In this document: one piece after another, positions 13,043 to 15,132 of the stretch
How the letters are laid out: each line of letters starts with the position of its first letter
Numbering within the stretch: position 1 is the first letter of the stretch
Assembly (NCBI RefSeq): GCF_003334255.1
Contig: NZ_QOWU01000006.1
Strand: one strand, 5' to 3'
Origin: Escherichia coli
GTDB taxonomy: Bacteria > Pseudomonadota > Gammaproteobacteria > Enterobacterales > Enterobacteriaceae
Length of the DNA: 64,000 bases
The notes under the pieces: model-generated
Told to the model about the DNA's origin: nothing
What the model saw: the letters and a program-made list of their open reading frames with translations, nothing else
The model's database searches: none
Translations under genes and position numbers: made by a program

Positions 13043-13942
13043 TTACGCAGAGAAAAAGGCGATGAGGATCGGCACTAACAGGCTAAGAATAAAACCGTGA
13101 ACAATTGCCGCCGGGACCATATCCAGCCCGCCAGTACGTTGAAGAACGGGCAGGGTGAAATCCATTGATGTGGCACCGCATAAGCCCAGTGCAGTAGAGC
13201 GGCTGCGGCGAATCAGCCCAGGGATCAACATAATAGCAATCAGTTCACGGGCCAGATCATTAAAAAACGCCGCGCTCCCGATTACCGGACCAAAAGATTC
13301 GGTCAATAAAATACCGGAAAGAGAATACCAGCCGAAACCGGAGGCCATTGCCAGCGCGGTATTGATGGGGAGATCAAGAATAAAGGCGTTAATTAAACCA
13401 CCAATTAATGAACTGACAACCACCACCACGGCGACAATCATTCCCCGGCGATTAAGGACAATCTGCTTTAAGGTCATGCCATTATTGCGCAACTGAATAC
13501 CAACGAGGAAAAGTAGCAAAATTAACGTGTATTCACTGGCTTCGGTCGCGTGTTGTAAGAAAGCCAGTCCACTTAGACCAATGGCAAAACCAATCACTAC
13601 TACGCCGCACAGTTTTAGCGACTCCAGCGCCATCGCAATACGCGACGGGAGTTTTTCTTGCTGATGGTGGTTGCGCCACGGCAGGCCTCGCTCCAGCCAC
13701 ATCAGGGCGGCAATATTACACAGTAAAATAACGGTAATACTGACGGCAGAATAATGCAGAATCGCCAACAGGTTACTGGCGAGGTTATCGAGAAACGCCA
13801 GACTGATACCCATAAAAAAGAGAATAAGGTAAACCATCCAGCTTAATAGCTGATTAATAACTTTTAACGCAGCTTGTTGGCGAAGCGGAATGAGGTAACC
13901 CACAATCAGGGGAACCAGAATGATTAACAGCCCAGAAAACAT
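13043..13942 (-). CDS. ybjE: Putative lysine exporter YbjE/LysO
   Basis: Polytopic membrane protein; start set at internal ATG (MFSGLLIILVPL). Confidence 0.85.
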   Translation of the reverse strand: MFSGLLIILVPLIVGYLIPLRQQAALKVINQLLSWMVYLILFFMGISLAFLDNLASNLLAILHYSAVSITVILLCNIAALMWLERGLPWRNHHQQEKLPSRIAMALESLKLCGVVVIGFAIGLSGLAFLQHATEASEYTLILLLFLVGIQLRNNGMTLKQIVLNRRGMIVAVVVVVSSLIGGLINAFILDLPINTALAMASGFGWYSLSGILLTESFGPVIGSAAFFNDLARELIAIMLIPGLIRRSRSTALGLCGATSMDFTLPVLQRTGGLDMVPAAIVHGFILSLLVPILIAFFSA

Positions 13943-14109
13943 GAAAACCCAGTCCTTGCAAAGATGAAGTCGAAATGCGCGATGACACACTACTGAAAGC
14001 GGAAGGACGAGTAAAGTTGCAATTAAAAGGAAATGTTATGCATAAGGAGCAGTAGAGTATTCGTTTTCATTTAAAGATATTCTTGCGCTTTAATTACAAA
14101 CTGCACCGA

Positions 14110-14320
14110 TGTTGGTGGCGTCAAAATCGCCGAGGCGTTCCCTGAAGGCCGGGGCAGCCCACATGGATGTGGGCTGAGGGCGCGTTTTACAGGGATGTTA
14201 CCTCGCGCCCGACCCGGTAGCCGTAAGGGATAAGCCGAGGGCACCGCGCAGCGGCGATTTTGTTCGCCAGAGCCCGGGGGTGCAGGGGGCGGCGGCGATT
14301 GGCCGCCCCCTGCGCGCTCC
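14110..14320. other. GC-rich structured intergenic element with nested inverted repeats
   Basis: Perfect 12-bp inverted repeat gcagggggcggc/gccgccccctgc (14282-14313); hairpin gcccacat-ggat-atgtgggc; long-range complement ggcgtcaaaatcgccg / cggcgattttg. Confidence 0.4.
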
Positions 14321-14436
14321 TTGCGCCAGTGGCAATATGTTGCTTAGCTCATGAAAGGAGCGCAACAAGATGATGAATCAACATATAACAACATCTTAAA
14401 AAAAGGCCTGACATTACGCCAGGCCTTCTGCGTTAA

Positions 14437-15132
14437 TTAATCACGCTTTTCCAGCAGGGTCCGGTAAATCAGACCACCGATAATGCCGCCGACAATTGGC
14501 ACCACCCAGAAGAACCACAGTTGTTCTAATGCCCAGCCGCCCTGGAAGATAGCAACCGCGGTGCTGCGCGCCGGGTTAACAGAAGTGTTAGTCACCGGAA
14601 TACTAATTAAGTGAATCAGGGTTAAGGCCAGACCAATAGCGATCGGCGCAAAACCTGCCGGCGCGAATTTGTCGGTTGCGCCGTGGATCACCAACAGGAA
14701 ACCTGCACTCAATACCAGTTCAACTACCAGCGCGGAAAGCATGGAATAACCGCCTGGTGAATGCTCGCCATAACCGTTAGAAGCAAAACCGCTGGCTGCC
14801 GCGTCAAAACCCGTTTTACCACTGGCAATTAAATACAGCAGCGCCGCTGCAACAATACCGCCGACAACCTGGGCAATTACGTAGCCAACGACTTCTTTTG
14901 CCGGAAAACGTCCGCCAGCCCATAAACCAATAGTGACCGCCGGGTTAAAATGACCACCAGAAATATGACCAACAGCAAAGGCCATCGTCAGAACGGTCAG
15001 ACCGAACGCCAACGCCACGCCGGCAAAACCAATGCCTAATTCCGGGAAGCCTGCGGCCAGTACAGCACTACCACAGCCACCAAAAACAAGCCAGAAAGTA
15101 CCAAAACATTCAGCTGCTAATTTTCTGAACAT
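14437..15132 (-). CDS. aqpZ: Aquaporin Z
   Basis: Two NPA motifs ([14 protein letters not shown]); 231 aa from [11 protein letters not shown]. Confidence 0.95.

Follow-up and report, generated by a model that had tools for sequence, protein, structure and literature searches.

What is the GC-rich, highly palindromic block between lysO (ybjE) and aqpZ in Escherichia coli, and does it act as RNA, as DNA, or simply as a repeat? The stretch analyzed here, called the window, is 64,000 nucleotides long, and it differs from K-12 MG1655 by 3 mismatches in 7,001 aligned bases. The interval 14110-14320 contains 68.7% G+C, compared with 37% in both of its flanks. As the first-pass annotation had proposed, the interval is palindromic and occupies the ybjE-aqpZ intergenic region, both genes lying on the minus strand (Table 1). 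A repeat scan finds four inverted repeats. They include the perfect 12-bp stem with an 8-nt loop at 14282-14313 that had been pointed out before, and a 16-nt pair (closing stem P1) that surrounds inner pairs.

A transcription signal was weighed at this point. An intrinsic terminator would share the GC-rich hairpin, but none of the element's stems is followed by a T-run. The 12-bp hairpin is followed by GCGCTCCTTGCGCC on the plus strand and by ACCCCCGGGC on the minus strand, and a promoter and terminator scan of 13900-14500 returns 0 sites of either kind. The earlier statements that a U-tract is missing and that this is not a simple terminator are thus borne out, and an intrinsic terminator was rejected. 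The element could still be an unusual terminator of aqpZ, or a leader or attenuator of lysO, as it sits between two co-oriented genes, and as the O157-type allele described below has no separate aqpZ terminator hairpin upstream of the element. On the other hand, aqpZ in this window has its own hairpin and T-run upstream of the element (14396-14430, minus strand), which escaped the terminator scan because its loop is 9 nt. Furthermore, the U-tract is lacking after every stem on either strand, and the same sequence adjoins unrelated genes in both orientations. We regard a transcription signal as extremely improbable.

The block is already known, under two names. The repeat was named TRIP1 (Rudd 1999; Li et al., Genes 2024, PMC10888264), and its copy TRIP1a was described as 266 bp long with 62-65% GC, lying 70 bp past the aqpZ stop and 158 bp ahead of the ybjE start (PMC10888264). 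With the lysO end at 13942 and the aqpZ limit at 14437, these published distances place TRIP1a at 14101-14366; homology to other copies extends over about 14093-14375. Position, 266-bp length, GC, the 125-bp-deleted TRIP1b and occurrence in both directions all agree with the TRIP1 description, and no difference was seen.

The 222-bp core common to the lysO and dusC copies was named Replication Risk Sequence, RRS (Pham et al., PMC10287960, PMC11194060), and the interval 14110-14320 coincides almost exactly with RRS-lysO. When the core is compared ungapped with K-12 TRIP1c (RRS-dusC), a single mismatch (14128) is found across 14112-14331, and divergence starts from 14332. The G4-forming motif quoted in PMC11194060, GGGGGTGCAGGGGGCGGCGG, has its sole occurrence in the window here (0 expected by chance), and G4-like runs detected by regular expression are confined to the plus strand. 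Locus, 222-bp core, exact G4 20-mer, strand and inverted dusC partner are the same as in the RRS reports (Pham 2023, 2024; Kusi-Appauh 2026), with no difference within the window. The GC-rich palindromic block is TRIP1a, which is RRS-lysO, two names for one element that is not new.

Table 1 Features of the lysO-aqpZ intergenic region in window coordinates.
Feature	Position	Strand	Remarks
lysO (ybjE)	13043-13942	-	mapped from K-12 annotation
Full TRIP1a repeat	14101-14366	+ (G-rich strand)	266 bp; 65.4% G+C
RRS-lysO core	about 14111-14332	+	~222-bp near-perfect repeat; inverted partner at dusC-yohP
TwoAYGGAY-like domain	14121-14260	+	closing stem and two apical hairpins; sub-threshold RF01731 match
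Closing stem P1	14122-14137 (5' arm) and 14247-14262 (3' arm)	+	16-nt arms, 88% complementary; repeat scan
18-nt direct repeats	14137-14154 and 14262-14279		starts 125 nt apart; repeat scan
125-bp internal segment	14155-14279		missing from TRIP1b-type copies; bounded by the 18-nt direct repeats
Perfect 10-nt inverted pair	14155-14164 and 14167-14176		repeat scan
Hairpin 1, CAGCCCACAT-GG-ATGTGGGCTG	14155-14176	+	10 nt, 100% complementary
Hairpin 1 loop motif ACATGGATGT	14161-14170	+	
Hairpin 2, GGGCGCG...CGCGCCC	14178-14210	+	minimum-free-energy folds; covariation analysis (helices 5 and 6)
Hairpin 2 apical motif ACAGGGATGT	14189-14198	+	
G-quadruplex motif GGGGGTGCAGGGGGCGGCGG	14276-14295	+	exact match
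Perfect 12-nt inverted repeat GCAGGGGGCGGC / GCCGCCCCCTGC	14282-14293 and 14302-14313		8-nt loop; repeat scan
Distal 9-bp stem GCGCTCCTT / AAGGAGCGC	14314-14322 and 14355-14363		repeat scan
aqpZ	14437-15132	-	mapped from K-12 annotation

For copy searches, the element was split into 14095-14154, 14155-14279 and 14280-14372. Each piece has a median of 3 places per genome and is found in all of the 5,426 complete E. coli genomes (5,426/5,426), the number of places ranging from 1 to 10. The copies are intergenic, mostly just 3' of stop codons, and five TRIP1 locus types, TRIP1a-e, have been distinguished (Li et al., PMC10888264). The first-pass annotation had suggested a structured RNA or a repetitive extragenic element, to be checked by a search for other genomic copies. 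Its repeat part is confirmed, as the element is a dispersed repeat of the TRIP1 type with further copies at dusC-yohP and putP-efeU.

At dusC-yohP, K-12 TRIP1c has 94.5% identity over 272 nt; Li et al. reported about 94% identity over the full length at yohI(dusC)-yohG (PMC10888264). In K-12 coordinates, its G4 motif (2,229,193-2,229,212) is on the minus strand at dusC, as opposed to the plus strand at lysO, where the core occupies 915,026-915,247. TRIP1b was described at putP-ycdN (efeU) with a '125 bp internal deletion' (Li et al., PMC10888264). In K-12 it follows putP at putP-efeU as two matching blocks without exactly 14155-14279, and alignment reveals the 125-bp deletion in the pZ1323HEC0475-2 copy as well. 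The segment is bounded by 18-nt direct repeats with starts 125 nt apart, the trace expected of a deletion by slippage or recombination.

Outside Escherichia, matches occur at 13 places of one Klebsiella pneumoniae chromosome, at unrelated loci including sites near rimO, near sitD and beside a mechanosensitive-channel gene. The 64-kb window contains no second copy, and the phage collection contains no match to the element. The plasmid collection contains 34 matching records. All of those inspected either contain genes of the chromosome (aqpZ-lysO, rimO, pcaCD, sitCD) or have a length of megabases, so that these records resemble chromosome fragments and were not counted as plasmid carriage.

The element is like REP/BIME in being GC-rich, palindromic, intergenic, dispersed and often placed just after genes. 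REPs are imperfect palindromes in units of about 35-40 nt with hundreds of copies per genome, whereas the present unit is 266 nt with a median of 3 places. Membership in REP/BIME was rejected, as unit size and copy number do not fit; neither a REP-like match nor a further copy was found in the 64-kb window.

Folding, another check suggested earlier, turned out to be stable beyond chance. With dinucleotide shuffles as the reference, the RNA fold of 14110-14320 has z = -5.7 on the plus strand and -4.5 on the minus strand, and the single-stranded DNA (ssDNA) fold of the 222-bp core has z = -7.5 and -7.0, respectively. In every RNA and ssDNA case, 0/200 shuffles were as stable as the native sequence.

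Conservation of the fold was examined in an alignment of 5 Escherichia and 5 Klebsiella copies, with the window's ssDNA fold of the plus strand as the structure. Where they align, the Klebsiella copies share 81-86% identity with the query. Across the 10 copies, 96.3% of cells are paired, and 11 pairs change on both sides, compared with 0-3 in controls slid by 1-3 columns; 0/500 shuffles reached the observed pairing and covariation values. In the 12-bp hairpin (columns 198-211 with 220-231), pairing is retained through changes of both bases in 4 of the 12 pairs, including two from C-G to A-U. In the P1 helix, 4 of 20 pairs covary. The closing-stem covariation is GGCG/CGCC to GGCC/GGCC and AAAAT/ATTTT to AACAT/ATGTT, and in hairpin 1 an A-U versus G-C covariation splits the Escherichia copies from the Klebsiella copies. 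The right end of TRIP1a is less conserved, and the arms of the distal 9-bp stem there are kept in all copies aligned. When deletion forms were included, RNAalifold gave a different, less informative consensus.

On the plus strand of the same alignment, G.T wobbles occupy 35 cells and A.C mismatches 6 (10 versus 4 positions). The excess fits folding of the plus strand and is suggestive, being a biased count because the structure was drawn from the plus-strand fold.

We assign a probability of about 85% to the reading that the element is one of two near-identical, mutually inverted, self-complementary GC-rich DNA repeats that flank the terminus region and leave gaps through a G4/hairpin structure on the lagging-strand template. 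A role at the DNA level, absent from the first-pass annotation, has been shown experimentally: a G4-containing fold of the lagging-strand template results in post-replication gaps (PMC10287960, PMC11194060). Sequence identity, strand, fold and repeat family of TRIP1a/RRS-lysO come from the present analysis, the replication effect is taken from the literature, and the topological role is the hypothesis of the RRS authors.

The locus is at 0.915 Mb of K-12, which we take to lie on the right replichore, between oriC (clockwise) and dif, so that the top strand (the plus strand of the window) is the lagging-strand template. From these coordinates we infer that the G4 strand is the lagging-strand template, in agreement with PMC11194060. 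Upon fork unwinding, this G-rich strand would become briefly single-stranded, and would fold into a large branched hairpin structure and a G-quadruplex at 14276-14295. The fold would stop the lagging-strand polymerase and leave the Okazaki fragment unfinished, and the resulting gap of up to about 2 kb would be loaded with SSB and RecA. According to the proposal of the RRS authors, such programmed transient gaps may serve as topological swivels in termination and segregation, acting as a 'relief valve'.

The published experiments support several of these steps. RecA and SSB form ssDNA peaks on the lagging strand beside both RRS, at lysO and dusC (Pham et al., PMC10287960, PMC11194060), and these peaks are abolished when the RRS is deleted (Pham et al.). 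RRS transplanted to new sites is still active (Pham et al., PMC11194060), and polymerases halt at the G4 site on the G strand (PMC11194060). A clean double RRS deletion was never obtained. In every double deletion a large region was amplified, or else additional or inverted copies of the RRS were required, and genome-wide supercoiling was altered when both RRS were removed or inverted (Pham et al.). The RRS position is conserved across enterobacteria (Pham et al.). In single-molecule experiments, almost all replisome encounters reportedly produce a gap when the G strand is the lagging-strand template, compared with about two-thirds when the C strand takes this place (Kusi-Appauh et al., bioRxiv 2026 preprint). 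According to the RRS authors, just one further bacterial G-quadruplex triggers gaps, the pilE-associated G4 of Neisseria gonorrhoeae. It differs in serving pilin antigenic variation at one locus rather than forming a terminus-flanking pair, and it has no sequence relationship to the element.

Two structures compete within this model. The G4 motif (14276-14295) and the 5' arm of the perfect 12-bp hairpin share nucleotides, which makes the two folds mutually exclusive. With the G-quadruplex option on, the lowest-energy fold of ViennaRNA keeps the hairpin. In view of the overlap and this preference, the sequence does not decide which structure blocks the polymerase.

The orientation of the element varies in nature. 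In O157:H7, the genes around lysO and dusC have the K-12 order and orientation. Its lysO copy has the G4 on the minus strand (Sakai, Xuzhou21), and its dusC copy has the G-rich strand on the plus strand (Xuzhou21). In the joint scoring of lysO and dusC, done in K-12 and one O157:H7 genome, both O157:H7 copies are flipped relative to K-12, and the mirror symmetry about the terminus is retained. With both copies flipped, the G strand becomes the leading-strand template in O157:H7, and the orientation stressed in the RRS model is thus not universally conserved. An engineered K-12 strain with both copies inverted is viable and lacks the RecA peaks (Pham et al., RRS work). Li et al. counted both directions at TRIP1a and TRIP1c (PMC10888264). 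Neither they nor the 2024 RRS paper (PMC11194060), from which O157 is absent, related orientation variants to replication.

The opposite-orientation allele does not look like a simple flip. Identity between the window and the O157-type lysO allele is about 91-92% within the element. The allele differs in its junction sequences at either end, and the terminator hairpin of aqpZ is missing from it. In a search specific for the junctions, 3,577 of the 5,426 genomes have the K-12 type and 913 the O157 type. A simple local inversion between the 13-nt repeats at 14077-14089 and 14359-14371 was rejected as the origin of the opposite-orientation allele because the junctions differ on both sides. Differing junctions together with the missing aqpZ terminator look like separate insertions or a replaced cassette.

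These features could also be read the other way, the element being primarily a selfish or neutrally spreading palindromic repeat (MITE/REP-like) whose replication gaps are a side effect of foldability and not selected. Between 1 and 10 places per E. coli genome over five locus types (Li et al., PMC10888264), and 13 places at unrelated loci of one Klebsiella pneumoniae chromosome, would be more usual for a spreading repeat than for a chromosomal device with two sites. Intergenic placement, mostly directly after stop codons, and lysO alleles that seem to have arisen by separate insertion or cassette replacement (different junctions, no aqpZ terminator in the O157 type) fit such spreading too. 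So do the TwoAYGGAY-like relatives treated below, which are palindromes of 130-220 nt in 10-17 or more copies per genome, with sharp ends and no orientation bias relative to open reading frames (42 versus 42). However, no complete E. coli genome lacks the element (5,426/5,426), and a flip of both copies leaves the lysO/dusC pair mirror-symmetric about the terminus. In addition, no clean double deletion has been obtained and the position is conserved across enterobacteria (Pham et al.). A transposase, terminal inverted repeats with target-site duplications, and phage matches were looked for and not found, and the inspected 'plasmid' records hold chromosomal genes and are likely chromosome fragments. 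Spreading without selection for gaps seems unlikely, while carrying some weight.

The structured-RNA part of the earlier suggestion was not established, as the Rfam match is sub-threshold, no promoter-like site is present and a CsrA table is negative. The Rfam search that had been recommended yields TwoAYGGAY only. In a permissive scan, RF01731 (TwoAYGGAY) matches 14121-14260 (plus strand) over the full model (1-168) with 30.2 bits and E = 0.01, falling below its gathering score of 43 bits; no family reaches its gathering score within the element. Five other Escherichia copies score 27.6-36.9 bits with TwoAYGGAY, the only consistent Rfam family among them. The match is absent from TRIP1b and from five Klebsiella copies. 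miRNA-family matches on one Klebsiella copy were discarded as generic GC-hairpin matches.

The architecture can be compared feature by feature. Shared with TwoAYGGAY are a long closing stem, two adjacent A-Y/R-GGA-Y hairpins 'AG' apart, and multiple copies per genome in Gammaproteobacteria. The two hairpin tips read ACAUGGAUGU and ACAGGGAUGU, making two ACAKGGAUGU hairpins. As an AYGGAY loop, AUGGAU of loop 1 fits, and AGGGAU of loop 2 has a purine at Y. Loops with ACAGGGAUGU also occur at loci above the gathering score, for example L087 (85.7 bits), and in the alignment of Weinberg et al. The large closing P1 is present, its 16-nt arms being lengthened by GGCG/CGCC pairs, with covariation. 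TwoAYGGAY was described with a large closing stem, and several copies in the alignment come from one Psychromonas genome (Weinberg et al. 2010); in the accessible part of the supplementary alignments, the E. coli hairpins have no match as exact strings. The E. coli domain is unlike TwoAYGGAY in its sub-threshold score, in the AGGGAU second loop and in being embedded with a G4/hairpin module, and the documented activity of the element is on DNA, unlike that of an RNA motif. We take the likeness to be real in architecture and unproven as family membership.

Relatives were sought by scanning the genome collection for two E. coli-type tips 14-26 nt apart. At least 120 loci were found, as compared with about 28 chance matches by our own estimate for the whole collection. 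Among the matches listed, nearly all are in hairpin context, and many copies per genome occur in several Gammaproteobacteria, a Lachnospiraceae genome and other taxa. The gathering score was passed at the pattern site in 6 of the 20 loci scanned. These TwoAYGGAY-like relatives are palindromes of 130-220 nt with 10-17 or more copies per genome, and conservation drops sharply at their ends. By crude calling of open reading frames, the matches have no orientation bias against flanking long frames (42 versus 42). In their apical stems, G.T pairs number 13 and A.C pairs 5, numbers too small for a strand decision.

Could the element then be, or also encode, a TwoAYGGAY-class RNA? A plus-strand transcript would present two ACAKGGAUGU apices that fit the reported CsrA-binding motif, and would act as a small CsrA decoy or an untranslated-region element. 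Among Rfam families, TwoAYGGAY ranks first and is alone in matching consistently in every full-length copy from Escherichia (27.6-36.9 bits, full model), and the tip-pair scan argues in the same direction, with at least 120 loci versus an estimate of about 28 by chance, hairpin context nearly throughout among those listed, and 6 of 20 scanned loci above the gathering score. The plus-strand excess of G.T wobbles over A.C mismatches (35 versus 6 cells) would also fit, but this count is biased by a structure taken from the plus-strand fold. In K-12, the dusC copy lies 43 bp past the dusC stop codon with its GGA strand in the sense of that gene. In contrast, the GGA strand of the window is antisense to both aqpZ and lysO, and orientation versus neighboring genes flips between lineages and between loci, with mirror symmetry retained. 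No sigma-70-like promoter is found in 13900-14500 on either strand, all TwoAYGGAY scores are under 43, and the Klebsiella homologues give no match. Two GGA sites are far below known CsrA sponges, CsrB and CsrC having many more. CsrA binding has been proposed for TwoAYGGAY (Gardner et al., PMC4333381), against which stands the CsrA gene table (PMC5694010), where dusC and ybjE read 'No' in all four flags, these being gene-level flags only. As a CsrA sponge, the element offers two GGA hairpins and no promoter-like site. We regard an RNA of the TwoAYGGAY class as improbable.

The resemblance could instead be turned around. The hairpin half of RRS/TRIP1 might be the enterobacterial branch of the orphan TwoAYGGAY family, and the whole family might consist of foldable DNA that acts in replication like RRS, rather than small RNAs, with the ACAKGGAUGU tips as a recognition or nucleation feature. 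Long palindromes in multiple copies make up the family across Gammaproteobacteria and Clostridia, and the tips are not treated in the cited RRS papers. We consider the conjecture rather unlikely.

Replication gaps formed by TRIP1a/RRS-lysO remain our preferred reading, and its meaning for E. coli is largely given by the published work, according to which just one other described bacterial sequence programs single-strand gaps in replication, and the RRS pair flanks the Ter macrodomain. The O157:H7 inversion, the TwoAYGGAY likeness and the 13 Klebsiella places receive no mention in the cited RRS and TRIP1 papers, and are offered as leads, not conclusions. They bear on which feature selection keeps: the G4, the fold of the hairpins, or the orientation of the copies. 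The orientation in which engineered K-12 lost its RecA peaks is the natural one in major lineages such as O157:H7, and the half of the element outside the G4 is similar to an orphan structured-RNA motif with a wide distribution and multiple copies in other bacteria. If TwoAYGGAY were such a DNA element, programmed gap formers would exist far beyond enterobacteria, and an unexplained Rfam motif would gain a function.

The copies of the element at lysO (TRIP1a, RRS-lysO) and at dusC (TRIP1c) are both reversed in O157:H7 relative to K-12, as seen at the Sakai and Xuzhou21 loci, while the flanking genes at both sites keep the K-12 order. Therefore, the G-rich strand is the leading-strand template at both sites in O157:H7. 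Among 5,426 complete genomes, the K-12-type lysO junction occurs in 3,577 and the O157-type junction in 913.

A simple flip of the lysO element is disfavoured, as the junction sequences of the two orientation alleles are unrelated on either side, and in the O157-type allele no terminator hairpin of aqpZ separates that gene's stop codon from the element. Judged from these sequences, the opposite-orientation allele seems to stem from cassette replacement or a separate insertion. In the window, the aqpZ intrinsic terminator closely precedes the element, upstream of it in the aqpZ sense, and was overlooked by the terminator scan because its loop is 9 nt long.

Feature coordinates (L-numbers are loci extracted from other records, in their own coordinates)
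Feature	Location	Strand
Copies in opposite orientation to K-12	L138:20972-21428 (Sakai); L140:31987-32443 and L139:1082-1470 (Xuzhou21); also L127, L128	
lysO junctions compared	L127:196-243 and 519-552 versus window 14369-14436 and 14047-14092	
aqpZ intrinsic terminator, AAGGCCTGGCGTAATGTCAGGCCTTTTTTT	window 14396-14430	-
Internally deleted copies	L001:2995-3134 (pZ1323HEC0475-2); L004:2954-3172 (pMTY11352_3)	
dusC copies with altered G4 20-mer	L126:243-529; L139:1322-1360	
ORFs of 56-57 aa across the element	window 14071-14244 and 14198-14368	-

The element also varies internally. In some dusC copies, GGGGGAGGAGGC...GTCCTCCCCC replaces GGGGGCGGCGGC...GCCGCCCCC, two compensating changes that preserve the 12-bp hairpin, and the published G4 20-mer is changed. 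Two records labelled as plasmids, both containing the chromosomal hcp-lysO-aqpZ-ybjD segment, carry internally deleted copies; that of pZ1323HEC0475-2, in the O157-type orientation, is missing the 125-bp segment, and that of pMTY11352_3 is missing approximately 14134-14208 (window numbering). The two ORFs across the element in the window are very likely spurious.

A group II intron domain of Parashewanella curva (Rfam Intron_gpII, 63.5 bits; L029:7131-7207, - strand) is ~110 nt away from a two-hairpin element resembling TwoAYGGAY. In K-12, the stretch between the putP-efeU copy (TRIP1b) and efeU, downstream of the former, has a sub-threshold naRNA4 match (28 bits against a gathering score of 59.5; L131:416-452), which may be a REP/BIME-type element.

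In Klebsiella, homologues whose aligned part is 81-86% identical (L133-L137) are found at unrelated loci, e.g., near rimO, near sitD, and adjoining a mechanosensitive-channel gene. At L134:1434-2015, a record of Klebsiella aerogenes has a CDS, annotated as 'Uncharacterised protein', that overlaps the homologous repeat. The literature mentions 'one or more additional RRS', a number well exceeded by CP125156.1, a K. pneumoniae chromosome listed under plasmids, which matches the element in 13 places.
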